A stretch of 64,000 nucleotides of DNA from Minisyncoccota bacterium. Lineage in GTDB: Bacteria; Patescibacteriota; Minisyncoccia; UBA6257; 2-01-FULL-56-20. Of the stretch, positions 9,945-52,814 are shown piece after piece. Within the stretch, counting starts at the first letter, position 1; every line of letters begins with the position of its first letter. Below the pieces are notes generated by a model. It had not been told where the DNA came from. It saw only the letters and a program-made list of their open reading frames with translations, and did not search any database. Location: the NCBI GenBank assembly GCA_035509435.1, contig DATJLR010000007.1, positions 1,555 to 65,554 on the forward strand. The letters run 5' to 3'. Made by a program: the position numbers and the translations under genes.

Positions 9945-11732
9945 ATGGCAACCGAACACTCGCCGGAGAAGATCGACCATATCCGCCACTCGCTCGCGCA
10001 CCTGCTCGCGGCAGCGGTGCTCAAAGAATTCCCTGACGCCAAGCTCGGCGTGGGGCCCGCCGTGGAGAACGGCTTCTATTATGACTTTCTGCTCCCCCGC
10101 CCCGTCACGCCGGACGACCTGAAGGTGCTCGAGAAGACGATGCGCTCGTTCGTCAATAAAAAGCTGGCATTCACCGGCCGCGAGGTCACGCCCGCGGAGG
10201 CAAAAAAGCTTTTTGCGCATCAGCCATTTAAGCTGGATCTAATAAACGACTTTGCGGCCGACGGAAAGACGCTGACCGTGTATGAAACGGGTGCGCCAGA
10301 AACCAGTTCCCAGAAACCAGTTACTGTTTTTATGGATCTCTGCCGCGGCGGCCACGTGGAGAACACATCGGAAATTCCCGCGGACGCTTTTACGCTCGAT
10401 AAGATCGCGGGCGCGTACTGGAAGGGCGACGAAAAGAACCAGCAGCTCCAGCGCATCTACGGCCTCGCGTTCGGGAGCAAGGCCGCGTTAAAAGAATATG
10501 AAAAAATGATGGAAGAAGCCAAGAAGCGCGACCATCGCAAGCTTGGCAAGGAACTTCAGCTCTTCGCGATCATCGATGAGATCGGACCGGGCCTTCCGCT
10601 CTTTTATCCGAAAGGAACCATCCTGCGCCGCACGCTGGAAAATTACATTACCGAGCTGCAGGAACGCCGCGGCTACGTGCCGATCTGGATCCCCCACATC
10701 ACGAAGGGCGAGCTGTATAAGATCTCCGGACACCTCGACAAATATGACGCGATGTATCCGCCGATGGAGCTCAAGGACGAGGCGAACTATTACCTCAAGC
10801 CGATGAACTGCCCGCACTTCATGATGCTCTATAAGACACTGCCGCATTCATACCGGGAGCTGCCGGTGCGCTATGTCTGCACGACCACCAATTACCGCTA
10901 CGAAAAGTCCGGCGAACTTTCCGGTCTTACGCGCGTGCGCGCGCTCACGCAGGATGACTGCCACGTGTTCGCGCGCCCGGACCAGATCAAGCAGGAGATC
11001 AATCTGATGCTCGACATGGTCGCCGAGATATACCGGACGTTCGGCTTTGATGATTTCTGGGTGCGCATCTCGACACACGATCCCGCCAATAAGGAAAAAT
11101 ACATCGGCAACCAGAATGTCTGGGCCGATTCAGAGGCGGCGCTCACCGACCTCATAAAGGACCGCGGATGGAAGTATGATATCGGCGTGGGCGAGGCGGC
11201 ATTCTACGGCCCAAAGCTCGACTTTATATTCAAAGATGTCATCGGCCGTGATTGGCAGCTCTCCACCATACAGCTCGACATGAACCTCCCCCAACGGTTC
11301 GAGCTTGAATATATAGATGAAAGTTCTTCAAAGCAGCGCCCGGTGGTGATCCATCGCGCGATCCTCGGATCGACCGAGCGGTTCCTCGGCATCCTCATCG
11401 AGCACTTCGCCGGCAAATTCCCCGTCTGGCTCTCCCCCGTGCAAGTAGCGGTCCTTCCTGTCAGCGAAAAATTCTCCGATTATGGGAAAAAGGTTTTTGA
11501 TGAGCTTGCCGCCGCCGGCATACGCGCCGAGCTCGCGGCCGCGAACGAGTCGCTCGGCAAACGCATCCGCGAAGCGGAACTGATGAAGGTCCCCTACGTG
11601 CTCGTCGTCGGGGAGAAAGAAGAGGGCGGCGGCTCCGTGAACGTCCGCGACCGCAAGGGCGAGGAGCGCGAAATGCCGCTCAAAGAGTTCCTGAAGCATA
11701 TCAGCGCGGAGATAAAAGAAAAAGCGCTGTAA
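9945..11732 (+). CDS. thrS: Threonyl-tRNA synthetase (short form lacking N-terminal TGS domains)
   Basis: Likely true start MATEHSPEKIDHIRHSLAHLLAAAVL at 9945, in frame within the 9525 track ORF. Motifs DLCRGGHV, HRAILGS, C-terminal anticodon-binding domain. Confidence 0.9.
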   Translation: MATEHSPEKIDHIRHSLAHLLAAAVLKEFPDAKLGVGPAVENGFYYDFLLPRPVTPDDLKVLEKTMRSFVNKKLAFTGREVTPAEAKKLFAHQPFKLDLINDFAADGKTLTVYETGAPETSSQKPVTVFMDLCRGGHVENTSEIPADAFTLDKIAGAYWKGDEKNQQLQRIYGLAFGSKAALKEYEKMMEEAKKRDHRKLGKELQLFAIIDEIGPGLPLFYPKGTILRRTLENYITELQERRGYVPIWIPHITKGELYKISGHLDKYDAMYPPMELKDEANYYLKPMNCPHFMMLYKTLPHSYRELPVRYVCTTTNYRYEKSGELSGLTRVRALTQDDCHVFARPDQIKQEINLMLDMVAEIYRTFGFDDFWVRISTHDPANKEKYIGNQNVWADSEAALTDLIKDRGWKYDIGVGEAAFYGPKLDFIFKDVIGRDWQLSTIQLDMNLPQRFELEYIDESSSKQRPVVIHRAILGSTERFLGILIEHFAGKFPVWLSPVQVAVLPVSEKFSDYGKKVFDELAAAGIRAELAAANESLGKRIREAELMKVPYVLVVGEKEEGGGSVNVRDRKGEEREMPLKEFLKHISAEIKEKAL

Positions 11733-13051: not shown

Positions 13052-13420
13052 TTATTTTCTGGCACCTCCTGCGGCCCAAGAGCCAGGGAGGTTGCGCCTT
13101 GAATAAGGATGGCTCATCATCCGCTGCCGCTCATCTTGTGCGGCGGTCGTGGCCGTGAAGATCCGCGTGGGACCATCATTTTCGGAAGAGGATTCGGTCC
13201 AATGCCGGATGATCGAAATCCATGTCAAGAGCGCGAACAGCCCCGGGATGATGATTATCGGCGACCAGACTACGATCCTGACGGTTAGCCACGAGTAATT
13301 GCGTTCCGCCATCCAGCTCGGTTCCGGCGCGCTAGAAAAATAGCATGCCATGGCGACCGAAGCGCAGATAACGATCAGAGTGACAAAGACAAGGCGGATA
13401 GGGGTGATTTTCGGGAACAC
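13052..13420 (-). CDS. Hypothetical small membrane protein
   Basis: 122 aa with 2-3 hydrophobic helices; no homology recognised. Confidence 0.3.
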   Translation of the reverse strand: MFPKITPIRLVFVTLIVICASVAMACYFSSAPEPSWMAERNYSWLTVRIVVWSPIIIIPGLFALLTWISIIRHWTESSSENDGPTRIFTATTAAQDERQRMMSHPYSRRNLPGSWAAGGARK

Positions 13421-13625: not shown

Positions 13626-15083
13626 CTATTGCAAGTTCTTCTCGAACAATTCCCGCAACATCTCCGGCCGTGCACGCCCCTTCAGGCGGCCCATCGCCTT
13701 TCCGATCAGGAACTGCAAGCTCGCCGTCTTCCCCTTTTTATAGTCCGCCACGGCCGCCGCGTTCTCCCCGATGACCGCAAGCACCACGGCCTCCACCTCA
13801 TCCGCATCGCCGATGCCGATGTTCTCGCTCTTTATGATCTCTTCCGGATCGGCGCCCGTCTCGAACATTTTTGCCAGCATGTCCTTGGCTTGGCGGCTCG
13901 TGATCTTCTGCTGGTCAATGAGCACCGCCAGCGCGCCGAGCCCCTCCGGCCGCACCTTAAGGTCGGCAAACGACGTGCCAGCCTCGTTCATAAGCCCCCG
14001 AAGGTCGCTCGTTAAATAGTTATAAACGATAGTCGGACTGCCATCGGGAATATCTTCACGAAACTCAGAAACCGCTTCCTCGAAGTAGTTGGCCATCGCG
14101 ATATCCCCTGTCAGCGCGTCAGCGGCGCGGGCGTCCAATCCGTATTCCTTCGCAAAACGAACGCGTTTCGCTTCCGGCAACTCAGGGATCGAATCGCGCA
14201 ATGCCTCGATGCCGAGCACCGCCGTCTCGAACGGCGGGATATCCGGCTCCGGGAAATAGCGATAGTCCTGGGCCTCTTCCTTTGAGCGCTGCGGGACGCT
14301 TTTTTGCTTTGCGTCATCCCAGCCGCGTGTCTCCTGCGTGACTTTCTCGCCCTTATCCAAAATTTCCGCCTGGCGCTTGATCTCATAATTGATCGCCTGG
14401 AATACCGAGTTGAATGAGTTCAGGTTCTTGACCTCCGCCCGCGTGCCAAGCGCGGCGCTGCCGTCCGGCGCGATGGAAATGTTCGCGTCGGCGCGCATTT
14501 GGCCGCGCTCAAGGTCGGCGTCGGATGCGCCGAGATAGCGCAGGATGAGCTGCAGCTCCTTCATGAATGCCACCGCATCCTCCGCGCTATGGATGTCCGG
14601 CTCCGTCACAAGCTCCATGAGCGGCACTCCCGCCCGGTTATAATCCACGAGCGTTCCGCCGCCCACATCGTCATGCATCAGCTTGCCCGCGTCCTCTTCC
14701 AGGTGGATATGGTTCACTTTGATCCCGCGCAGCGCGCCACCGGTCATGAGCGGCTGGCCGTTCTGGGAGATCTGATACGCTTTCGGAAGGTCGGGATAGA
14801 AATAGTTCTTGCGGTCAAAACGCGAGCGGCCGTTCGGAGTGCCGCCGAGCGCGAGGCCGACCCGCACGACGTGCTCGATCGCCTGTCTATTCGGCACCGG
14901 CAGCGTTCCCGGATGGCCCATGCAAACGGGGCACACATTCACATTCGGACGCAACTCGCCCGGATCGTTCAGCGAGTCGCAGAACATCTTGGTGCGCGTT
15001 TTGAGTTCCGCATGCACCTCAAGGCCGATGGTAGGTTTATAGTCGCTCATTGATAGTTCTGATAGTAGCCGAAAACGGCCCAT
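13626..15083 (-). CDS. gatB: Asp/Glu-tRNA amidotransferase subunit B
   Basis: YKPTIGLEVHAELKTRTKMFC, CPVCMGHPGTLPV; C-terminal GatB/YqeY domain. Confidence 0.9.
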   Translation of the reverse strand: MGRFRLLSELSMSDYKPTIGLEVHAELKTRTKMFCDSLNDPGELRPNVNVCPVCMGHPGTLPVPNRQAIEHVVRVGLALGGTPNGRSRFDRKNYFYPDLPKAYQISQNGQPLMTGGALRGIKVNHIHLEEDAGKLMHDDVGGGTLVDYNRAGVPLMELVTEPDIHSAEDAVAFMKELQLILRYLGASDADLERGQMRADANISIAPDGSAALGTRAEVKNLNSFNSVFQAINYEIKRQAEILDKGEKVTQETRGWDDAKQKSVPQRSKEEAQDYRYFPEPDIPPFETAVLGIEALRDSIPELPEAKRVRFAKEYGLDARAADALTGDIAMANYFEEAVSEFREDIPDGSPTIVYNYLTSDLRGLMNEAGTSFADLKVRPEGLGALAVLIDQQKITSRQAKDMLAKMFETGADPEEIIKSENIGIGDADEVEAVVLAVIGENAAAVADYKKGKTASLQFLIGKAMGRLKGRARPEMLRELFEKNLQ

Positions 15084-20319: not shown

Positions 20320-20394
20320 GGGCTGGTGGTGAAATGGTATCACAGCCTTCTTGCCAGATGGCAGTTCGGGGTTCGATTCTCCGCCAGTCCACCA
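20320..20394 (+). tRNA. tRNA-like gene, Gly(GCC)-like anticodon loop, encoded 3' CCA, irregular anticodon stem
   Basis: Acceptor GGGCTGG/CCAGTCC (one G-U), D arm GTGA-AATGGTA-TCAC, T arm CGGGG-TTCGATT-CTCCG, discriminator A then CCA. The anticodon region GCCTTCTTGCCAGATGGC has loop TTGCCAG (anticodon GCC), but the stem pairs only as G-C, C-G, C-G, TxT, T-A with an 8-nt loop. Confidence 0.55.
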
Positions 20395-20971: not shown

Positions 20972-21036
20972 AGTTCCAGATTGTAGCCGAACCGGCTCTA
21001 AAAGTCCAGCCGGTCCCGGCTACCAGTTTCTCGTTA

Positions 21037-27774
<6,738 letters not shown>

Positions 27775-27986: not shown

Positions 27987-28988
27987 TTATTGGTTGCTTT
28001 CTAGGTATTTAACTCTATTTTGGTTCTGTTCGTCAAGGGTCTTGGCGAATATGGTTTTTCCCGTCGCGGGGTCGGTCAAATAATATAGATAGGGAGAGCT
28101 TTGAGGGTGCAGCGCGGCGGTAATGGCGGAAGTGCCTGGATTTCCGATGGGCCCCGGGGGCAGACCCTTGTACAAGTAGGTATTGTAAGGCGAATCTATT
28201 TTGAAGTCAAGGGCCGTGAGGGTGCAGGCCTGGCTGCCGGGAGACGGGGGGCTGGAAGACTGGGAAACTAGTAGTTTCGCATAGCAAACGGTCGCGTCTA
28301 TATCGAGAGGCATGCCCAAGCTCAGGCGCTTCTCAATGATGCCAGCTACCAATTCCTGGTCTGCCAGGTTGGGCACTTCTTTTTGTACGATGGAAGCAAT
28401 GATAAGGGTGCGCAGGGCGGCAGTGGGATCGGCGGGGAGCAGCGGTGCCGCCTTCGCGTTGAAATTGTCCGTCATTTCGCCTACCACCGCCGCCACGTTT
28501 TCGTCCGTATAGAACTGGTAGGTGTCGGGAAAAAGATGGCCTTCGAGGGCCAGTGACCCGGTCGCATCCACGAGCGTGCCGGGACGGATCACGAGCGCGT
28601 CGCTCAATATCCGGTCGATGCCAAATATCGTCGTCCCCTCCGGGATCGTGACCGTGACCTTTGCGGCATTCCCGCCGGAGATCGCCGCGACGATGGCGGG
28701 CGTGTCCATGGACGGACTCAATCGGTATAGTCCCGGCTGGAGCGTGAAGGCGCGTCCATCCACCAGGGAAAAAAGATCGAATGCGAGCGGCGAACGGATG
28801 AGGCGTGCTTCATAAAGATTTTCCGCGACCATCCGGAATCCGTCGCCGGTGTTCACCTGAAAGACGACCGTCGTCCCGCTCGCCGTGGCATTAGCGGGAC
28901 CAAGGCCGAAAAAGAACGAGCCGGCCGCGAGGACGACGGCCATGAGAACCGCCGCTCCGATAATGTTCTTCTTGATAAAGAGCTTCAT
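27987..28988 (-). CDS. mltG: Endolytic murein transglycosylase MltG/YceG
   Basis: TM anchor, YceG-like domain, GLPPGPIGNPG...PYLYYL. Confidence 0.8.
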   Translation of the reverse strand: MKLFIKKNIIGAAVLMAVVLAAGSFFFGLGPANATASGTTVVFQVNTGDGFRMVAENLYEARLIRSPLAFDLFSLVDGRAFTLQPGLYRLSPSMDTPAIVAAISGGNAAKVTVTIPEGTTIFGIDRILSDALVIRPGTLVDATGSLALEGHLFPDTYQFYTDENVAAVVGEMTDNFNAKAAPLLPADPTAALRTLIIASIVQKEVPNLADQELVAGIIEKRLSLGMPLDIDATVCYAKLLVSQSSSPPSPGSQACTLTALDFKIDSPYNTYLYKGLPPGPIGNPGTSAITAALHPQSSPYLYYLTDPATGKTIFAKTLDEQNQNRVKYLESNQ

Positions 28989-31942: not shown

Positions 31943-32066
31943 CTTTGATGTCGGCACATCCTACTTTCCCCGCCCGAAGGCAAGTATCATGGGATTGGGA
32001 CGCTTTCACTTCTCTGTTCGGAATGGGAAGAGGTGGGACACGCCCGAATGAAGCACCGACATCAAA
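31943..32066 (-). rRNA. rrf: 5S rRNA
   Basis: Reverse complement contains CCCATTCCGAACAGAGAAGTGAAAG and paired ends tttgatgtcggtgc / gcaccgacatcaaa. Ends +/-5 nt. Confidence 0.85.
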
Positions 32067-32499: not shown

Positions 32500-33268
32500 C
32501 AATTTCTTCTTCTATCGCCATTACTGGCGGGTTGGACTATACCACCATCTCCACTGAGATGATCGACGTGTTAGTCCGGCATGATTGCCGGACTCCAGCT
32601 CGTAATGAGCTAAGTCTCTAAGGGGTCAATGCATGATATTTCCGCTTTTTTGAATAATTCAGAAAGCGAAAACGTTCTACTAATTCTGCCAACGCTCGAA
32701 AATCATCTTTACTTTGAATTTTCGATTTAGCATCGAGGATTTGGACCATCAGATCGGCTTGCTCACCTTTCAGTATCAGGAACCCACGAACTTCGCCGAG
32801 AAACGATCTGATCGCCTCTTCGCGCGCGATGGTATATTCGATCATGCCATCATTGCGTTCGCGGATATATCCCAAGTTAATAAGCGAACAAATTTCTTCA
32901 AATTTGCGCTGATCTTTTTTGGATTGGAAAAGCACGATGCAAGGAGCTATTTGAAATCCATATCGATAAGTCGAGTTAGATTTCATCCTTACATAGATAC
33001 TCCCATCTCCATCCAGAAATCCTGCTATGTATGCTTTTTGCGTTGACGAAAGACTTTTCATACACGACTTCCCTCGGTATTATCCTACGATCTCACGTCT
33101 CATCAAACTAGTTTTTAATCTATTTTTAATAAGCGTTACGATACATCCCAGGTCAGGATGTTAGGACTTCACCGATATGAGTCGATTTTGCTATCTCGAT
33201 CGCTCGAGAAAGCCGCCGTTTTTGTTTTAACAGTTTTTGATGTACCTTCGATCGGGTTATCTTCGTTG
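32500..33268 (-). mobile_element. Group I intron at 23S position equivalent to E. coli U2593 (I-CreI site)
   Basis: 5' exon ends ...GGGTTCAGACCGT and 3' exon resumes CGTGAGACAGGTCGG. The intron begins CAACGAAG and ends ...AATTG (omega-G). It is ~770 nt and includes a LAGLIDADG ORF. Confidence 0.75.
32618..33061 (-). CDS. LAGLIDADG homing endonuclease (single-motif, I-CreI-like)
   Basis: 147 aa; IAGFLDGDGSIYV motif; encoded inside the 2593 intron. Confidence 0.85.
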   Translation of the reverse strand: MKSLSSTQKAYIAGFLDGDGSIYVRMKSNSTYRYGFQIAPCIVLFQSKKDQRKFEEICSLINLGYIRERNDGMIEYTIAREEAIRSFLGEVRGFLILKGEQADLMVQILDAKSKIQSKDDFRALAELVERFRFLNYSKKRKYHALTP

Positions 33269-34269
33269 ACGGTCTGAACCCAGCTCACGTGCCACTTTAA
33301 TTGGCGAACAGCCAAACGCTTGGGAGCTTCTACACCCCCGCGCTGTGGCGAGCCGACATCGAGGTGCCGAGCATTGTCGTCGCTAGGGACGCTCGGACAA
33401 TACTAGCCTGTTATCCCCGGAGTAGCTTTTATCCGGTGTCTCCGGCCTTTCTATTAAGAAGCCGTCGGGTCACTAACTTCTGCTTTCGCACCTGCTCGTC
33501 TTGTATGACTCGCAGTCAAGCCAGCTTTTGCGTTTGCACGTCCTGCCCGATTTCCATCCGGGCTAAGCTAACCTTAATAAACTCCTCCGTTACTCTTTTG
33601 GAGGAAAACGCCCCATTTAAACTGCCTACCAAGCACTGTCTTAGCGGAGTTTCCCCGAAGGGTTCTCCGCCAGTTAGACGTCAAAATTCTGAAAATGGCT
33701 GTTTCATTGTCGGATCCACGTCACCCGAAAGCGACGCTTCAAATCCTCGCCACTACACTACGTAACAGAACTCTGAAATCAATACCAAGCTGCAGTAAAG
33801 CTTCCGGGGTCTTTTCGTCCCGCTGCAGGTATCCCGCGTCTTCACGGGAATCGCATTTTCACCGAGCTCATCGTTGAGACAGTTCTCCGGTCGTTACACC
33901 TTTCGTGCGCTTCGGAACTTACCCGAAAAGGAATTGCGCTCAAACATGTTACAACACTTTTTGTTGGCCAAAACATTTCTGCTTGGCTCTCTGTGTCGCC
34001 ACAGAGTTCGGACTATATCTTATCGCCTTGCGGCGATCCTAACGTGTAGTCTCTGAGGATCCTTCAAAAGAAGTTTCCTGCTGATTTTCCGCATCGATCA
34101 AAGATTGTTACCTTGCGGTACTTTGATATGCGCGGGTGTTCCAGCATATAGTTAGGTTTTACTAAGGCAATGCAATCACCTTAGAACGATTCTTTTACGT
34201 TATCACCCGCTCGTTTTTTAATTTAAGCGGGATCCTCATGGTCGCCCATGAGATCGGACTATATCATCT

Positions 34270-34827
34270 CTAAAAACTTTTAGAGTCTGGCGTATAGTCT
34301 CTGAGGATTCCTTGATAGTCTATTTCTACGTCTATTACGTTGTATTTACGCCTTCTTCCTCTTCCCTCATTTAAATTTTCCCTGATAGCGATAATTTCTT
34401 GCAGTCCTTTTGGATCAAGGTGTTTGCCTTGCTCCATAAGAAATGCAATTTGTTTGAACAGGAGAAAATTTTTCTTTTTTGATGAAGAAAAGAAAGGAAA
34501 CTTTTCGAAAAACGGTATGACGCGATCAATGATCGAACGATAATCGCCGACGACGAAGTAATGCACTCCGTCTTCACGATTTTGCAATCGTCCGCAACCT
34601 AAATGACTTTTTAATAATTCCAAATTGGCGATATCGCGCTGGGCCACGTTAAAGGTCATTTGCACCTGCCATCCAAGGCGATGCCCATTCCCTTTTCGAA
34701 GAGAGACATTAAAACTTCCCTCTCCATCCGTAAAACCAGAAAGATACCAGCCAATGTTGTCTGGAATTTTCTCAAGCCATTCACGGTTATACCAAGGCCT
34801 TTCCTGCTGATTGTCTGCACCGATCAT
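34270..34827 (-). CDS. LAGLIDADG homing endonuclease (single-motif)
   Basis: 185 aa; LSGFTDGEGSFNVS motif. Confidence 0.85.
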   Translation of the reverse strand: MIGADNQQERPWYNREWLEKIPDNIGWYLSGFTDGEGSFNVSLRKGNGHRLGWQVQMTFNVAQRDIANLELLKSHLGCGRLQNREDGVHYFVVGDYRSIIDRVIPFFEKFPFFSSSKKKNFLLFKQIAFLMEQGKHLDPKGLQEIIAIRENLNEGRGRRRKYNVIDVEIDYQGILRDYTPDSKSF

Positions 34828-34991
34828 ATTGTCACGCTAGCACATCAACATTAAATCTTTATTAAAAAGATTTCATGATGAGCAACGTAATGTCGGATTC
34901 TCAGAGTTTCCAGCATTTGGCCAGATTTTATAACTACAATCGTTATGTCTATAGTTATCGCTGACATTGACGAGGGCTTGAATCAGTGAGC

Positions 34992-35080
34992 CTCCTGGTA
35001 ACTAATTGCTAGTAACTCGGTAACCTAGCAAGAAAAATCTTGCTAGTTACCAAGGTTTACTAGTAACCAGTGACCAGGAG
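34992..35080. repeat. Imperfect ~40-bp-stem hairpin built from GTTAC(C/T)AG / CTAGTAAC words at the 5' edge of the domain-IV insertion (replaces the helix-68-like hairpin)
   Basis: ctcctggtaactaattgctagtaactcggtaacctagcaag-aaaaatc-ttgctagttaccaaggtttactagtaaccagtgaccaggag. Confidence 0.7.
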
Positions 35081-35723
35081 ACCCCCAATCTTGACCTTCT
35101 CGCATCGGTCAGGTGTCACCCCCTATACATCCTGTTGCCAGTTAGCAGGGAGCTGTGTTTTTGGTAAACAGTCGCCAGAGATTCTTTAGCTGCGGCCCCG
35201 CCCGCATTGCTGCGGAAAGGGCAGGCCTTATTGCTAACTTACGGCCGCTATTTTGCCTAGTTCCTTAACGATGAATCACTCGTTCCCCTTGGGCTACTCG
35301 CCCTATACACCAGTGTCGGTTTCCGGTACGGAGACCACACGCTCGATTTGGCCAAATTTTTCTCGAACGGCTCTTCACAAACGTCGGCCAGGTAAATTCC
35401 TGACCTTCTCTCGGCGCGCGCTTGAACTCCGCGCAAAGAATGCCAAACCGATAAGGCACGCCTGCTTATATCCGTTGTCCTTTGGTTATGATCGTGCGGC
35501 CGGGCTGGAATATTAACCAGCTTCCCATCGACTGCCCCTTTCGGGATCGCCTTAGGACCGCCTAACCCGTGGTTGATTGCCAGTGCCACGGAAACCTTGT
35601 ATTTTCGGGGTTCCAATTTCTCATTGGGATTGTGGTTACTCATTCCAACATTTTCTCTTCCGGCCGCTCCAAACGCCCTCGCGGGTCGATCTTCACTGCA
35701 GGCCGAAATGCTCTCCTACCACT

Positions 35724-35762
35724 ACTGGTAACTGATTACTAGTTGCTAGTAAACCTAGTAGA
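35724..35762. repeat. IVS 3'-flank motif block, complementary to 36163..36204 (RNase III-type stem of the 23S IVS)
   Basis: ctggtaactgattactagttgctagtaaacctagtag; reverse complement of the 5'-flank block is ctggtaactgattactggtaactaggaactagtaacaag. Confidence 0.7.
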
Positions 35763-36113
35763 TTTTTCAATGCTTTTTGTAAGATTGGTCAATTCTTTGC
35801 CGACGATCGCGTATTGCTCGGAAAGGAATTTGTATTGTTCATCGGAAAGTAACTCCACTTTCCGCATGAATTCAAGATTGAACGCTATTTCATCCGCTGA
35901 TCCCAAGGAATCTTTCAGATGATTGATCGTGTCCTTCTTTGATTTCTTCCGTGCGAACCCTTCCGCGATGTTTGAGGGAATTGAACGTGAGGCCCGCCGT
36001 ATTTGATCGGCAAGCTCCAGTTTATATTCCTTCGGCAATGAAAGAGATATTTTATGAACCTTTATTGCAAGTTCGAACGATCTTTTGAACACATCAAGAT
36101 CTTTGTATATCAT
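35739..36113 (-). CDS. 23S rRNA intervening-sequence protein (four-helix-bundle, TIGR02436-like)
   Basis: 124 aa; FELAIKVHKISLSLPKEYKLELADQIRRASRSIPSNIAEGFARK. Sits at a helix-45-like position (~E. coli 1170-1200) flanked by complementary motif blocks. Confidence 0.8.
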   Translation of the reverse strand: MIYKDLDVFKRSFELAIKVHKISLSLPKEYKLELADQIRRASRSIPSNIAEGFARKKSKKDTINHLKDSLGSADEIAFNLEFMRKVELLSDEQYKFLSEQYAIVGKELTNLTKSIEKSTRFTSN

Positions 36114-36162
36114 CCTTCCATTGAACCATTTCTCGCATTAACTCTTTCTTAAATCTTTTCCT

Positions 36163-36204
36163 TGTTACTAGTTCCTAGTTACCAGTAATCAGTTACCAGT
36201 AATC
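36163..36204. repeat. IVS 5'-flank motif block (partner of 35724..35762)
   Basis: cttgttactagttcctagttaccagtaatcagttaccagtaatccg. Confidence 0.7.
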
Positions 36205-37050
36205 CGTATCTTCGGTACCATGCTTAGCCCCGGTACATTTTCGGCGCCACGACCCGTCGAATAGTGAGTTGTTACACACTCTTTAAAGGATGGCTACCTC
36301 TAAGCCAACCTCCTATCTGTCTATGGGTCATGACTACCTTTTACACTTAGCATGGATTTAGGGACCTTAGATGACGATCTGGGCTCTTCCCCTCGCGACC
36401 ACGGAGCTTAGCCCCCGCAGTCTAACTAGCAAGATCTTGACTCTCGGTATTCGGAGTTTGATTGATCGTTCGGTCTTTCGACCTGTAACGATCATCCAGT
36501 GCTCTACCCCCAAGAGGAACTCTTGCCGCCAGTCCTAAAACTGTTTCGGAGAGAACCAGCTATTACGTTATTCGATTAGCTTTTCACTCCTTACCTCAGC
36601 TCATCCGAAGATTTTGAACAATCAACCGGTTCGGGCCTCCCTCCCGATTTCTCGGGAGTTCACCCTGGCCAAGGCAAGCTCATAACGCTTCGGGTCTATC
36701 TTGTGCTGCGATCCCACTCAAATTTTTGGAGCCGTGACAAATCCACGGCGATGCGGTATTTTTATGATTAGCTTCTCCTCCACGGGAGGCCGTATGTTCT
36801 CAGGACACAGCCCCGATCCCATGCTTCAGGGCCTCACTTCCTTTCTCATGGAAGCAAACCCGATTGCCTGGGGAGTGCTTGCCGTCGGTGTCGCATTGCT
36901 TATCGTGGCCATTTGGAGCATGCACCACGAAAACAAAACCCCGACCTGCAAGTGACCAATCTGCCAAAACACCTGCCCGCTCACGCGCGCGGGTGTTTTC
37001 TTTTGGCGCTCACGCGCCGCTTATTTCTCCAAAAATTTGAGTGGGATGTG

Positions 37051-37081
<31 letters not shown>

Positions 37082-37244
37082 TCACGCTATGCGCGCTTAG
37101 ACAAGCAACACAAAATAAGTCGTTGGATCATTCTTCAATAGGCACATTGTTCCACTCGTCCGCGGATTGCTCCGCAGCCGTTCGTGGTTCAATTCCTTGT
37201 AGACAAACGGTTTCAGGTTCTATTTCAACGGCCTCACCGGCCTG

Positions 37245-37281
<37 letters not shown>

Positions 37282-38230
37282 ATCTAGAAAAGTATTTAGC
37301 CTTACCTGATAGTACAGGTGTATTCCTCCGGAACTGTTTTACTCCGAAGTACTCAAGTTAAAAAACTAAGGAGACCAAAAGTTTTCGTCTACGGGGCTAT
37401 CACCCGCTCTGGCGCCGCTTTCCAGACGGCTTCGACTAACCAATGATTTTTTTACTCCTCCACCTCCCAGCGAGTAACGCAACGTACACTTGCGTGCGCG
37501 CTACGTTACTTGCTAAAAGAGCGTTTTTTACTGAACCCCAAGATCGTGATAAATCACAACCTTAGTTTGGGCTCCTCCCCGTTCTCTCGCCGATACTTAG
37601 GGAATAACTGATTTGTTCTATTTTCCTCCGCTTACTGGAATGTTTTACTTCAGCGGGTACGCGATCCGCTTGCGCGGAACAATTGAGGGTTACTCAACTA
37701 GGTTTCCCCATTCGGAAATTCCCGGATCACAGGTTGCTACGCACCTCCCCGAGACATATCGTTGCTACGCCACGTCCTTCATCGCCTTTTCTAGTCTAGG
37801 CATCCACCGTTCGCCCTTATTTGCCAACCATCCCAATGCTGACTTGCTCGTGGATCACAGCGAAACGCCGCAATCCACTTGCCATCAGTAAGAAAAATTC
37901 TTACCGATGCTTTGACCCTGTCCGTCACGAGAAATTGACTACATATGCGTATGCAGCGATCCGGCCCACCCGCAATGCGGATGTTAGCGACCGGACCTAA
38001 TAGTGACACAGGGTCTCCATATTATGTCCTCCGACTCTACAATTCGGAGTTCCGCCAAATCGGCGAATGATTTGAAATAGCATTTGCTCAGCATCGCGAG
38101 ACGCTGCAAGACACGGACCGCCAAGAAAAAAATCAGCCGCACACAGCGGCCGCTGACTGCTTCAAAGAAGCGGCTTCAGCCGGAGTGTTGTGAGAGATTT
38201 AAAGTCTTGACCATTCGTATCTTGAGGATA

Positions 38231-48080: not shown

Positions 48081-49067
48081 ATGGCAGGGATGAAGTCGCC
48101 AAATTCACCCTTGATGTATGCACGACGACGACGCGCGAACAAAAAATGGCTGTGGGTGGCAGTTGCAGCCATCACTTGCCTGATTGTGCTATGCGGCTGG
48201 TGGGCTTTCGCCCGATCGCCAGCGTCCCCGTCTGCGAATACGCCGCCCGGCACGCTCGCGTGGCCGTCGTTCGGACAGGCCGCCGTCGGCATCGTTGGCA
48301 CGAGCACGATCCAAACATACGGCGATCAAACGCCAGTGCCGACGGCGAGTACCGCAAAAATGATCACCGCTCTCGTGGTGCTCCAAGCCAAACCGCTCTC
48401 GCCCGGCCAAACCGGTCCGATGCTTACCATGTCGCGCGATGACCTTGTCTTATTGAAAACCTACGCCGCCCTTGATGGCTCGAGAATCACCAAAATGGGG
48501 GTCGGCGAACAGCTGAGCGAGTATCAGATGCTGGAAGCCATGATGCTACCCTCCGCCGACAATGCAGCCGACAGCCTGGCCATCTGGGCGTATGGCTCGC
48601 TGCCCGCATACAGCGCAGCTGCCAACAGTTATCTGGCCGGTTTGGGCTTAAGCGGCACGCATGTGGGAACCGACGCGAGCGGCCTTGACCCGAGCACGGT
48701 AAGCACCGCGCACGACATGGTGCTCATCGGCGAACTTGTTATGCAGAATCCTGTGCTTGCGGAAATTGTTGGGGAGCAAAGTGTCAGCGGGTTTCCCTTG
48801 GTAGGCACCATTACCAACACGAACAGCTTGCTTGGCCAGGACGGGATCGTCGGCGTGAAGACCGGCAATAGCGACGAGCAGAGCGGCGCTTATGTGGCGG
48901 CCGCGGATGCCACTGTGAACGGAAAAACTGAAACCATCGTAACGGCAGTACTTGATGCGCCGAGCCTCGACGACGCCATGGATGCCAGCGTGCCGTTGAT
49001 AAAGAGCACCAGGTTTGGCTCTTTATCAAAATCCCGACCTAAAGCCACTCAGGATGTTTCTCTTTAA
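48081..49067 (+). CDS. D-alanyl-D-alanine carboxypeptidase (S11, PBP5-like)
   Basis: TM/signal; STAKMIT (SxxK), SADN (SxN), KTG-like region. Confidence 0.75.
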   Translation: MAGMKSPNSPLMYARRRRANKKWLWVAVAAITCLIVLCGWWAFARSPASPSANTPPGTLAWPSFGQAAVGIVGTSTIQTYGDQTPVPTASTAKMITALVVLQAKPLSPGQTGPMLTMSRDDLVLLKTYAALDGSRITKMGVGEQLSEYQMLEAMMLPSADNAADSLAIWAYGSLPAYSAAANSYLAGLGLSGTHVGTDASGLDPSTVSTAHDMVLIGELVMQNPVLAEIVGEQSVSGFPLVGTITNTNSLLGQDGIVGVKTGNSDEQSGAYVAAADATVNGKTETIVTAVLDAPSLDDAMDASVPLIKSTRFGSLSKSRPKATQDVSL

Positions 49068-49395
49068 TCGAATTAAACCATTCAGCACCAATGATATCTT
49101 CAAGGCTATAATCTTTAAACTCTTTTGATTGAGAGAGGTCGATGACATCTTTTTCGTCTACATAGACCTTGCATTCCCCGCTTGATTCCACGTCACGAAT
49201 TTCTCCTGGGAAAATTTGCAGGTTGATCTTGTTATTCTTGTGTCTCATATAAAAGAGCCAAATTTTTTGGCCGTTATGTAATGGCCCATATTTATCAACT
49301 AGCTTCTTAATCCAAATTTGATTACGTAATGAGAAATGTCCATCAGCATAGTCGTTCCAATCCCCATTGATAAATACTTGTTTCCCTGATTTCAT
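49039..49395 (-). CDS. Hypothetical protein in AT-rich island (candidate immunity/accessory)
   Basis: 118 aa; local GC roughly 38% versus ~60% for the flanks. Confidence 0.4.
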   Translation of the reverse strand: MKSGKQVFINGDWNDYADGHFSLRNQIWIKKLVDKYGPLHNGQKIWLFYMRHKNNKINLQIFPGEIRDVESSGECKVYVDEKDVIDLSQSKEFKDYSLEDIIGAEWFNSIKEKHPEWL

Positions 49396-49401
49396 GTTTT
49401 T

Positions 49402-49773
49402 TTAGCACTTAGAAAGCTCGAATTTCCCTACGTTCTCTTTAAAAGAATTGCCGTAAGCATATAGTTCGATTTGGGTAATACGGCCGTCCTTTCCCCATAA
49501 TACCGATCCGCCTCCATCATCGATATCCTGAGATTTTATTTCTGGTCCATCAAGCGGCCATCCTTTTTTTCTTAATTTATTTATATCAACAAGGTTCGCG
49601 TCCGAAGAAACGTCGAGCTTTATATAAAATCCCGTTTTAGTCCATTTTCGCTCTTTCAATTTAGCAGTATTTATTTGCACGGAAAGATTCTCGTCTTTAT
49701 AGCGTTGGGCGAACCATTGCAAAATAGCCTTTTCTAAACTATTCAACTGAACTTTGCTTGAAGATGATTCCAT
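49402..49773 (-). CDS. Hypothetical protein in AT-rich island (candidate immunity protein)
   Basis: 123-aa ORF in the same low-GC block, tightly spaced. Confidence 0.4.
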   Translation of the reverse strand: MESSSSKVQLNSLEKAILQWFAQRYKDENLSVQINTAKLKERKWTKTGFYIKLDVSSDANLVDINKLRKKGWPLDGPEIKSQDIDDGGGSVLWGKDGRITQIELYAYGNSFKENVGKFELSKC

Positions 49774-49787
49774 TCAAACTGGCGACG

Positions 49788-50108
49788 CTAAACTTGCTTC
49801 TTCTGTTTACTGTCATAAACAAATTCATAAGCGATATCCCCTTCCTTGTGCTGCTCAAAGAAATCCTTTGCTTTTTGGTAAGAAATTTCAAAACTATCAT
49901 CGGAATAGTCAGCAGAGTAATCTTGATCGATTTGGATCGCCCGAGGAGAAACATTTTTAAGTAAATGAAATCCATCGAAACCGAGTAAGCGCAAGTTGTT
50001 TTCTCTCAATAGACCAAGAAACACTACTGCGTCCTTCCTGTTGAGGAGAGTCGCATTATCGTAGGGTTTTAGTCTGTGTTCGGATAGGAATTGTTGTATT
50101 TTGTCCAT
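49788..50108 (-). CDS. Hypothetical protein in AT-rich island (candidate immunity protein)
   Basis: 106 aa; directly downstream of the toxin-like gene. Confidence 0.4.
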   Translation of the reverse strand: MDKIQQFLSEHRLKPYDNATLLNRKDAVVFLGLLRENNLRLLGFDGFHLLKNVSPRAIQIDQDYSADYSDDSFEISYQKAKDFFEQHKEGDIAYEFVYDSKQKKQV

Positions 50109-50120
50109 GGCTTTAATATA

Positions 50121-50729
50121 TCACTCAAATGGAAAGATTTCATCTGGAACTATGATGCCTGGTTCTTCCGGAACGACCTCCGGAATATATGGATCTTGAA
50201 TGGAAGAATCGGGATACCATTCAGGATCATTTTTGTTGGATACTTGAATTACTTGTTTAGTCACATTATCAACGGAAACATAGTTCCCCTGCTCATCATA
50301 ATACGCGGTCGCTGGATTGCCATTTGCCTTATTCGCTGCAGCGCGCGTGGTGAAGGGATTTCCATAAAGCTTGTCTATGTCTTGCTGAGTCCAACCGCGA
50401 CCCTCCATTTGATTGGATATTTTTTCTGGGATTACAGGACCGCTACCCCCTCCACCAGACCCTCCCGAAGTCACCAAACTTCCATACCCACCAATAGATA
50501 TCCACGGCGATCCCGTTCCACCCTGCCCTCCTCCAGCTGGCGTATTAACACCAACATTGTTCAGATTAGAAGGATTGCCTGCTTTGCCAATATTCGTAGA
50601 ACCAACATTATTTCCCTGACCCGGATTACTCATTGACCCTCCTGTTGTAGCGGCTAATTGCCCCAAGCTATTAACTATGGATTGCAAACTATTCACTATT
50701 TGCTGTAGTGAAGCGATAATAGATTTCAA
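50121..50729 (-). CDS. Gly/Asn-rich secreted protein with conserved C-terminal toxin-like domain (polymorphic-toxin-like)
   Basis: 202 aa; N-terminal LQQIVNSLQSIVNSLGQLAATTGG, Gly-rich linker, C-terminal GWTQQDIDKLYGNPFTTRAA...ATAYYDEQGNYVSVDNVTKQVIQVS, followed by three small ORFs. Confidence 0.45.
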   Translation of the reverse strand: MKSIIASLQQIVNSLQSIVNSLGQLAATTGGSMSNPGQGNNVGSTNIGKAGNPSNLNNVGVNTPAGGGQGGTGSPWISIGGYGSLVTSGGSGGGGSGPVIPEKISNQMEGRGWTQQDIDKLYGNPFTTRAAANKANGNPATAYYDEQGNYVSVDNVTKQVIQVSNKNDPEWYPDSSIQDPYIPEVVPEEPGIIVPDEIFPFE

Positions 50730-51027
50730 ATCTTTTCCGCTCGGATCTTTCTTGGTAATGGGATTATCATCGGAATACGAATACGCATTCTAAGCTGCCT
50801 TTCATCCCGAATACAACAAACCGAGGCCTCTCGGTCTTAAAAGAATCTACCTTGGCTGTTGCGGGGGCAAGACTCGGACTTGCTTCGGAAGCTTATGGGG
50901 CTTCCCGGAAAACCTTTCCCAACCCTCCCGCGCGATGATGCCTGCGCGGGCATTGAGGGCTCACGCATGCATCGCTGTCCTGTGCATTATATAAATTTTC
51001 TGGCGTGATTGTCAAAAGAACGGATTA

Positions 51028-52436: not shown

Positions 52437-52778
52437 TTGAAAAAACCGGCGTCATCGGCTAAGATGGTGGTAATGTCATCCTCCATCAACAAGAAGGAGC
52501 TGGAGCGTTTGGCCAAGCTCGCGCGGATCGAGCTCGACCCTGCCGAGGAAGAGAAATTGCTCAAAGACCTCGGCAATATCCTTGACCACTTTAAGGAGCT
52601 CCAGGCGCTCGACACCGCGAACGTCCCGCCCATGGCCGGCGGCACCGACCTCACGAACGTGTTCCGCGAGGACGGCGAAGATCACGGCGGACCCGAGAGC
52701 ACGAACCGCGGCGCGGGCGTTGACGCATTCCCCGAGTCAAAAGACGGCTACCTCAAAGTCCCGCCGGTATTTGAATAG
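52437..52778 (+). CDS. gatC: Asp/Glu-tRNA amidotransferase subunit C
   Basis: INKKELERLAKLARIELDPAEEEKLLKDLGNILDHFKELQALDTANVPP. Confidence 0.85.
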   Translation: MKKPASSAKMVVMSSSINKKELERLAKLARIELDPAEEEKLLKDLGNILDHFKELQALDTANVPPMAGGTDLTNVFREDGEDHGGPESTNRGAGVDAFPESKDGYLKVPPVFE

Positions 52779-52814
52779 CAAGAAACTATTTACCAGAAAC
52801 TAATTACCAGTACG

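Follow-up and report, generated by a model that had tools for sequence, protein, structure and literature searches.

An in-frame tract of a small dispersed repeat family in the variable loop of MltG from a Minisyncoccota bacterium

Rickettsia palindromic elements (RPEs) are selfish repeats that lie in frame in protein-coding genes (Ogata et al. 2000, summarised in PMC10969869). They are among the described systems closest to the subject of this work, that is, a short tract of repeat units lying in frame within mltG, the gene for a YceG-family endolytic transglycosylase, in a 64,000-nucleotide stretch of DNA from a Minisyncoccota bacterium (GenBank assembly GCA_035509435.1, contig DATJLR010000007.1, positions 1,555 to 65,554), here called the window. 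The units end in CCAG or CTAG (CyAG) and recur at several other places of the window. Like RPEs, this family is dispersed in unrelated housekeeping genes, is translated in frame at tolerant positions, occurs also outside protein-coding DNA, and has copies that are present or absent between close relatives. Unlike RPEs, which are palindromic, measure about 100-150 bp and encode a conserved peptide, the window copies span about 25-65 nt, consist of 7-nt or 14-nt units and are read in different frames. Moreover, hairpins are formed by some copies only (rpoBC end, lepA and rRNA) and not by the mltG copy, and the host belongs to the Candidate Phyla Radiation (CPR) and not to Rickettsia. Membership in the RPEs was rejected on size (25-65 nt), on palindromy (folding z-score of -0.43 for the mltG copy) and on the encoded peptide, as the frames of the thrS and lepA copies differ.

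A second possible resemblance is to the cyanobacterial STRR, heptanucleotide repeats (7-nt unit, 20-30-nt element) with a CAGT- or CCAG-like core that form dispersed tandem arrays, mainly in intergenic DNA. The window family differs from STRR in taxon, in unit sequence and in respect of this intergenic preference; with STRR, as with the small dispersed repeats of Nostoc (mentioned in PMC3116915), it would share very short dispersed tandem units. A third group is made up of the REP/REPIN and MITE-type small mobile DNA, short, non-coding and over-represented sequences that often form hairpins at the 3' ends of genes (PMC3116915, PMC10969869). In analogy with these, the copy at the end of rpoBC forms a hairpin at the 3' end of the gene, both in the window and in a related genome (locus L003); by contrast, neither a RAYT or transposase gene nor terminal inverted repeats or a target-site duplication were seen, and many window copies are intragenic. 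Finally, the family touches the intervening sequences (IVS) of 23S rRNA that are accompanied by an IVS protein (PF05635), as the stems of the window IVS are built from CyAG units. An IVS, however, is an insertion at the RNA level that is removed from the rRNA, whereas the mltG tract is translated and retained.

The host gene occupies positions 27987-28988 on the minus strand and encodes 333 amino acids. Its assignment to the YceG/MltG family is supported by the Pfam profile PF02618 (2.8e-68; a score of 230.8 bits where the cut-off is 32.4, covering profile positions 1-273 of 275), by PDB matches to 4IIW, 8YQ7 and 2R1F, and by the C-terminal signature DxTV.Y, SPYNTY and GLPPGPI, present here as the motifs DATVCYA, SPYNTY and GLPPGPIGNPG, which flank the variable loop and align to both 2R1F and 4IIW. 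The protein is 100% identical to an MltG deposited at NCBI (P0001, labelled 'MAG TPA Candidatus Paceibacterota') on a contig of 459,847 bp. When genome contigs were scanned with an MltG alignment, the matches listed comprised distant relatives (26-57%) only. Within DATVCYA, Cys235 is invariant, and in the Paceibacteria orthologues it flanks the variable loop together with a distal cysteine, whose codon TGC closes the loop at 28224-28226 (-) in the orthologue alignment; these two residues may form a disulfide. The AlphaFold2 model of the protein, with pLDDT below 50 over residues 225-322, was too poor in this region and was not used.

Between DATVCYA and SPYNTY, the loop exceeds that of E. coli MltG (2R1F) by 11 residues and that of Listeria Lmo1499 (4IIW) by 12 in HMMER alignments, in good agreement with the excess of about 12 over the E. 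coli protein that a first-pass annotation of this DNA had proposed. The same annotation had placed a 36-nt repeat unit at 28242-28277 of the plus strand, and the 36-mer AGACGGGGGGCTGGAAGACTGGGAAACTAGTAGTTT is indeed found exactly there, inside the mltG open reading frame (ORF) and nowhere else in the window. On the coding strand, this interval reads AAA CTA CTA GTT TCC CAG TCT TCC AGC CCC CCG TCT, which encodes KLLVSQSSSPPS, namely a conserved Lys codon followed by 11 codons of the tract.

The comparison with closer relatives rests on an alignment of 120 MltG orthologues with 55-78% identity. In most of them the segment from LDIDATV to SAIT counts 58 amino acids, against 63 in the window, so that the excess over close relatives is only 5 amino acids; the segment ranges from 56 to 72 residues in the whole set and is a general hot spot of insertions and deletions. 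The closest orthologue (P0002, 78%) has a loop of the same type and length as the window, with an excess of zero, whereas the next closest (P0003, 78%) has what is referred to here as the base state. In other words, the length difference from close orthologues on which the first-pass annotation had staked its proposal exists with respect to P0003 (5 residues) and vanishes with respect to P0002, which carries the same loop.

The base-state loop, KLLAxPTSTAQAC with KLLA written AAG CTT TTG GCG, is found in the majority of orthologues and on every deep branch. The residues K-L-L are kept in nearly all orthologues and lie outside any insertion. With respect to the base state, the window exchanges 8 codons (A-x-P-T-S-T-A-Q) for 13 (V-S-Q-S-S-S-P-P-S-P-G-S-Q), a net gain of 5 amino acids. 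In addition, the two conserved Leu codons are recoded from CTT TTG to CTA CTA. In the tract-bearing orthologues, K-L-L-V is likewise written with CTr CTr GTT (or TTr CTr GTT) and is followed by TCC CAG TCy TCC AGT; given the CTT TTG of the base state, the conserved Leu codons have thus been overwritten too. Comparison with the orthologous locus L001 sets the true span of the tract at 28230-28274 (-), that is, 45 nt or 15 codons, which encode LLVSQSSSPPSPGSQ and, in a codon-level comparison with L001 and L003-L007, replace the base-state LLAxPTSTAQ. The idea of a clean insertion of 36 nt and 12 residues has consequently to be abandoned, since KLL is ancestral, the last 10 nt of the proposed unit (CCCCCCGTCT on the coding strand) are unlike the family, and the event is a replacement. 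That the tract is the derived state follows from the base-state loop present at the same site in P0003/L005, in L007 and in about 100 more orthologues. The mltG tract is a real, repeat-derived, in-frame loop replacement.

The tract, which can be described as a CTACTAGTTTCCCAG-type tract of a S/Q/P-rich loop, is made up of the units CTACTAG TTTCCCAG TCTTCCAG CCCCCCG TCTCCCGG CAGCCAG. Where the window has CCCCCG, L001 has CCCCAG, which identifies a decayed unit. The codon content is unusual for this genome: CTA, used twice running in the tract, represents 1.9% of Leu codons, GTT 10% of Val codons and TCT 4.6% of Ser codons. Accordingly, windows of 8 codons across the tract rank 56-93 out of 9314 for low codon adaptation, within the lowest ~1%, beside the lepA copy, which also stands at the bottom of the window. 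Two other roles for the mltG copy were considered. A hairpin or palindrome was rejected, as the 7+7 dyad GAAACTA-G-TAGTTTC is present but folds no better than shuffled sequences. A phase-variable contingency repeat does not fit either, since the units are heterogeneous, no perfect repeats occur, and the orthologue tracts examined are in frame.

Membership of the tract in the CyAG family was established with a strict array detector. Specifically, the family is characterized by units of 7-9 nt ending in CCAG or CTAG, often with a 14-nt period (CCAGAAACCAGTTC), and the detector requires at least three consecutive units of the form nnnC[CT]AG with a spacing of 6-9 nt. The window yields 5 such arrays, the one in mltG (28252-28274) included, and 50 triplet shuffles yield none. 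In related loci amounting to 572 kb, the detector returns only 4 arrays, of which 3 are mltG loops. The octamer TACTAGTT occurs 5 times in the window (64 kb, both strands, hence 128 kb), against 0.28 expected under a third-order Markov model, and its copies sit in mltG and in arrays A, C, D and E, which correspond to lepA, the rpoBC stop codon and the 23S IVS stems. The extended core TAGTT(T)CC(C)AG(G)wCT is confined, within the window, to lepA, the rpoBC end and mltG. Moreover, GTTACTAG, TTACTAG and GTTACCAG belong to the k-mers with the highest over-representation in the window, while the tetranucleotide CTAG itself is depleted about 8-fold (31 observed, ~242 expected). About one third of the CTAG sites of the window fall within repeat arrays, and many of the remainder in other parts of the 23S rRNA gene region.

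The specific link first proposed, between the mltG unit and a motif at the 3' end of rpoBC, survives in its general terms. The common family holds by virtue of the array detector and of the TACTAGTT octamer, and the inverted orientation and the in-frame translation hold as well. In particular, CCTGGAAACTAGTAG at 21041-21055 (-) differs from the 15-mer of mltG by 2 mismatches or 1 indel and has the opposite orientation relative to its gene. What does not hold is the near identity of this single pair as evidence, the lone 15-mer match being weak. Shared k-mers proved too permissive a measure, and were replaced by the unit-array detector because a conserved segment of rpoB scored higher than mltG. 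This segment (25880-25915, minus strand) encodes ISQKPLVT with TCCCAGAAACCACTGGTTAC, which equals the thrS array TCCCAGAAACCAGTTAC save for a 3-nt indel. Presumably it represents no insertion relative to RpoB of E. coli and B. subtilis. Its likeness to the arrays is taken as chance, but the segment may, alternatively, have been a source or a sink of the repeat.

The remaining copies illustrate the variety of positions at which the family is found. The lepA copy (1893-1957, minus strand) is an array that encodes ..LVTRDLELVTGNARNKLLETS.. and accounts for 12 additional residues with respect to Aquifex LepA (2YWE). The thrS copy (10292-10326, plus strand), called by Tandem Repeats Finder (TRF) with the 14-nt period CCAGAAACCAGTTC, encodes APETSSQKPVT and gives 11 additional residues with respect to S. 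aureus ThrRS (1NYQ). The thrS sequence GCGCCAGAAACCAGTTCCCAGAAACCAGT and one lepA copy, CGCCAGAAACAAGTTACTAGAAACCAGT, are identical at 26 of 32 nt and yet are read in different frames (APETSSQKP and NARNKLLETS, respectively). A further copy at 21019-21060 (-) comprises the last codons of rpoBC (..AVLETSS*) with its stop codon and contains a hairpin with a folding energy of -20.5 kcal/mol (z -3.67), and an intergenic copy (AGAAACTAATTACC x2) was called by TRF at 52775-52812 (+). As mentioned for RPEs, the repeat thus lies in frame inside the unrelated housekeeping genes lepA, thrS, rpoBC (C-terminus) and mltG. To judge from the different frames of the thrS and lepA copies, and from the copies in rRNA and in intergenic DNA, the CyAG family is an element at the level of DNA and not a peptide motif. 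Sequence comparison also indicates that it is recent and lineage-specific in this genome, because the relative with the most similar ThrRS (P0122/L146, 86% identical) lacks both the thrS and the rpoBC copies. Specifically, none of the 119 other close ThrRS orthologues examined has the thrS insert, and the rpoBC-end element is absent from 11 relatives with an AAVATE*-type end, L146 among them, with a diverged form in L003.

In the 23S rRNA gene, two arrays form the stem of the IVS. Array E (36158-36210, minus strand), an inverted repeat also called by TRF, constitutes the 5' arm and pairs with array D (35720-35760, minus strand; inverted repeat I8, 87% complementary), the 3' arm. The ORF enclosed between them (35739-36113) matches PF05635, 23S_rRNA_IVP, at 1.1e-28. 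Another insertion with CyAG units, this time without an ORF, is a 97-nt hairpin at 34981-35077 (-), with a folding energy of -61 kcal/mol and a z-score of -9.8.

Several observations concern the surroundings of these copies. The ThrRS site that holds the array is itself a hot spot of insertions and deletions, with unrelated lineage-specific inserts such as GAPGEAP, QSPQTTNHKHQT and AINAKYQIPDTKY (orthologues including P0123-P0129, P0157, P0172, P0186 and P0193). On the contig of one of these, P0128 (ERZ1426829), a reverse transcriptase gene (RVT_1) adjoins a bAvd/23S_rRNA_IVP-like gene about 4-6 kb from thrS, an arrangement suggestive of a diversity-generating retroelement in this close relative. 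The rpoB and rpoC genes are fused in a single ORF (21037-27774, minus strand, 2245 aa), and the fusion is kept in relatives, as an ORF of 2244 aa in L007 and one called at 2123 aa in L003. The N-terminus of the ORF 13626-15083 contains, at 15050-15080 (-), the sequence GGCTACTATCAGAACTATCA (RFRLLSELS), which stands at the bottom of the window for codon adaptation; this segment bears a faint likeness to the repeat units (CTACTATCAG AACTATCA) and may be a decayed copy. The 23S rRNA gene (33157-37830, minus strand) extends over 4.67 kb against a model of 2.9 kb and holds a group I intron (33989-34187) adjoining a LAGLIDADG endonuclease ORF (34270-34827). The window holds a 5S rRNA (31949-32060) and, according to the Rfam calls, no 16S rRNA in any part of its 64 kb. 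Patches of low G+C content (38-51%, on a background of 56%) are found outside the rRNA region, at 49001-51000 and 57001-59000. A tRNA called by ARAGORN at 20320-20394 (+), with an undetermined anticodon (gc), was set aside as a probable false positive, as it lies inside an ORF region and below the Rfam gathering threshold.

Tracts related to that of the window are found in some of the MltG orthologues. Loops of the VSQ type are carried by about 7 of the 120 closest sequences (P0001, P0002, P0009, P0014, P0026, P0074 and P0078), which are scattered among base-state sequences in an MltG tree built with the loop masked. Such loops contain 3-6 CyAG per 51-75 nt, compared with 0-2 in base-state loops and in T/P/A-rich expanded loops; the LLENQ-type loops of L106 and L107, with 3 each, are the exception. 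Internal tandem duplications of 24 nt in L004 and of 15 nt in L006 suggest that slippage has acted on the orthologous tracts. At its start, the tract of the window shares about 22 of 24 nt with that of L004 (yTACTAGTTTCCCAGTCyTCCAG), in spite of an identity of the mltG DNA of otherwise only ~55-60%.

The L003 genome carries an mltG tract together with a diverged element of about 41 nt, able to form a hairpin, at the rpoBC stop codon, and the only two genomes that have the mltG tract and data for both sites, L003 and the window, both have the rpoBC-end element. The L003 hairpin (13095-13130), a perfect 15-bp stem ACCGGTAAATAGTAA-TCGG-TTACTATTTACCGGT over the stop codon (-28.9 kcal/mol, z -4.85), occupies the same site as the window element, with ACCGGT cores instead of ACTAGT/ACTGGT. 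The RpoBC protein of L003 is 96% identical to those of L091, L097 and L102, which lack both tracts, and 87.5% identical to that of the window. Informative sites join L003 with the window only near the mltG loop (11:9) and at the rpoBC end (8:9 / 11:12), against about 3:19 elsewhere. A horizontal transfer of the whole mltG-rpoBC segment between the two lineages was rejected, as L003 is nearer to L091/L102 almost everywhere. In the closer clade, an upstream RLSLG haplotype accompanies the VSQ-type loops; this linked haplotype and the local phylogenetic discordance argue that part of the patchiness of the tract results from the transfer of alleles on short recombination tracts. In the distant clade (L004 and L006), the tract is not accompanied by its flanks, and for this reason a recurrent gain or very short tracts are possible there. 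An array of a more distant relative, L130 (44% MltG identity, 43% G+C), is a perfect (CCACTAG)x4 at 13052-13079 (-) and suggests a wider occurrence of CyAG heptamer arrays within the group.

The reading that we consider probable, with moderate confidence, is that a member of a small dispersed repeat family has overwritten, in frame, the hypervariable loop of MltG and is tolerated there. That is, a tract of the CyAG family would have replaced the loop between the two conserved cysteines. Other members of the family lie within loops of lepA and thrS that tolerate extra residues, on the stop codon of rpoBC, in the 23S IVS stems and in one stretch of intergenic DNA. The tract is translated as a flexible Ser/Gln/Pro linker bracketed by the two cysteines. 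Its arrival may have been a copy-and-paste event from another copy, by illegitimate recombination, template switching or transposition of some kind; its length would then change through slippage between units, and it would move among related lineages on short homologous-recombination tracts. Since the MltG site tolerates almost any insertion, the tract is most likely neutral 'passenger' DNA and not an adaptation of the enzyme.

A number of observations weigh against an overwrite by a family member. Within mltG, the good match to the family is confined to about 23 nt (28252-28274), the units are heterogeneous (7, 8, 8, 7, 8 and 7 nt), the copy has no significant hairpin (z -0.43 against shuffles), and the CCAGAAACCAGTTC-type period of 14 nt is not seen, TRF having called the thrS, IVS and intergenic copies only. 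With regard to the similarity itself, 0.61 hits would be expected for the lone 15-mer match of mltG and rpoBC at up to 3 mismatches, mltG has fewer 7-mers in common with the arrays than the conserved rpoB segment 25880-25915, and S/Q-rich coding DNA of low complexity can by itself generate a CCAG periodicity (TCC CAG, TCC AGT). In L003, L004 and L006 the mltG loop is the sole array in the flanks examined, and the link of the loop to a genome-wide family is direct only for the window genome and partial for L003. Lastly, no terminal inverted repeats or target-site duplications were visible by inspection when thrS was compared with the empty L146 site and mltG with L005 and L007, and no transposase is associated with the copies.

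Some of these points recur in an alternative that we hold to be unlikely, according to which the S/Q/P-rich stretch grew in place via replication slippage and resembles the arrays through a mere coincidence of codon content (TCC CAG / TCC AGT). The variation of the loop between 56 and 72 residues across the 120 orthologues, with many unrelated T/P/A-rich expansions, speaks in its favor, as do the tandem duplications inside the L004 (24-nt) and L006 (15-nt) loops, the weak 15-mer match and the chance k-mer matches in conserved rpoB. A growth in place, however, leaves unexplained why two Leu codons were recoded to CTA CTA, a 1.9% codon (p ~ 4e-4 by usage), and how ACTAGT was created in a genome depleted of CTAG. 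It is equally silent on the ~22/24 nt common to the window and L004, whose mltG DNA is ~55-60% identical, and on the co-occurrence of mltG tract and rpoBC-end element in the only two genomes with data for both.

Selection on the peptide provides a different explanation of the same distribution. The VSQSSS.. sequence might serve MltG, either as a glycosylation or linker segment or as an epitope under diversifying selection, and might be exchanged by recombination as a functional allele. The patchy occurrence over the MltG tree, the linked flanking haplotypes and the local phylogenetic discordance are compatible with such an allele, and the N-terminal part of the loop, LLVSQSSS, is kept in P0001, P0002, P0009 and P0074. 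The distal part, on the contrary, is free in length and sequence, and the loop appears dispensable, given that only ~7/120 of the closest orthologues carry it. Moreover, the same DNA family is read in other frames in other genes and is found in non-coding RNA and DNA, which places the explanation at the DNA level. A selected allele is, on these grounds, improbable.

A third possibility moves the function from the peptide to the DNA, with the repeat core acting as an uptake or recombination-promoting signal in natural transformation, like the USS/DUS of Pasteurellaceae and Neisseria. CPR bacteria encode competence machinery, which was counted in its favor. In analogy with USS/DUS, the window motif occupies weakly constrained coding positions in several reading frames and accompanies recombination tracts, its copies coinciding with short ones at mltG and at the rpoBC end. 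USS/DUS, however, have a density of roughly 1 per kb, 1-2 orders of magnitude higher than that of the window motif. The core 7-8-mers at the top of the over-representation list have 5-9 copies per 64 kb, far too sparse for such a function, no single invariant core exists, and the 572 kb of related genomes contain hardly any arrays; a role in uptake is very improbable as a result. An artefact of assembly or sequencing (a chimeric join or a mis-assembled repeat in mltG), which the metagenomic origin of the genome might suggest, is scarcely credible, since the ORF is intact, the protein is 100% identical to the deposited sequence on the 459,847-bp contig, and homologous tracts occur in independent assemblies of different projects (Logan SRR28211854/SRR28211860, ENA ERZ25039529, ERZ27249030 and SRR18077951).

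Beyond the in-frame overwrite of the MltG loop, a more far-reaching interpretation can be put forward only tentatively, and with considerable doubt. It holds that Paceibacteria harbor an active, mobile CyAG-heptamer repeat of ~25-45 nt, which settles in loops and at the ends of essential genes (mltG, thrS, lepA and rpoBC) as well as in rRNA IVS, repeatedly hits the same tolerant sites in non-sister lineages, and spreads on short recombination tracts, possibly by natural transformation. Such an element would be RPE-like and could involve a new insertion mechanism. To our knowledge, no earlier case of this kind is known in CPR/Patescibacteria, and a literature search returned nothing usable on heptanucleotide repeats in Patescibacteria or on STRR.

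The consequences for MltG itself are probably small, namely a longer flexible loop where length already varies freely, and the mltG observation taken by itself is a modest one. More weight attaches to the presence of the family in a CPR genome, within four essential genes and the rRNA. If truly mobile, the repeat would rank among the smallest elements with known insertions in essential genes, and the question would arise of which machinery copies an element of 25-45 nt in a genome of ~0.5-1 Mb without obvious transposases. If this interpretation is true, the family would also account for part of the lineage-specific insertions to which CPR proteins and rRNAs owe their unusual appearance, and its copies would offer markers for following recombination among uncultivated lineages.

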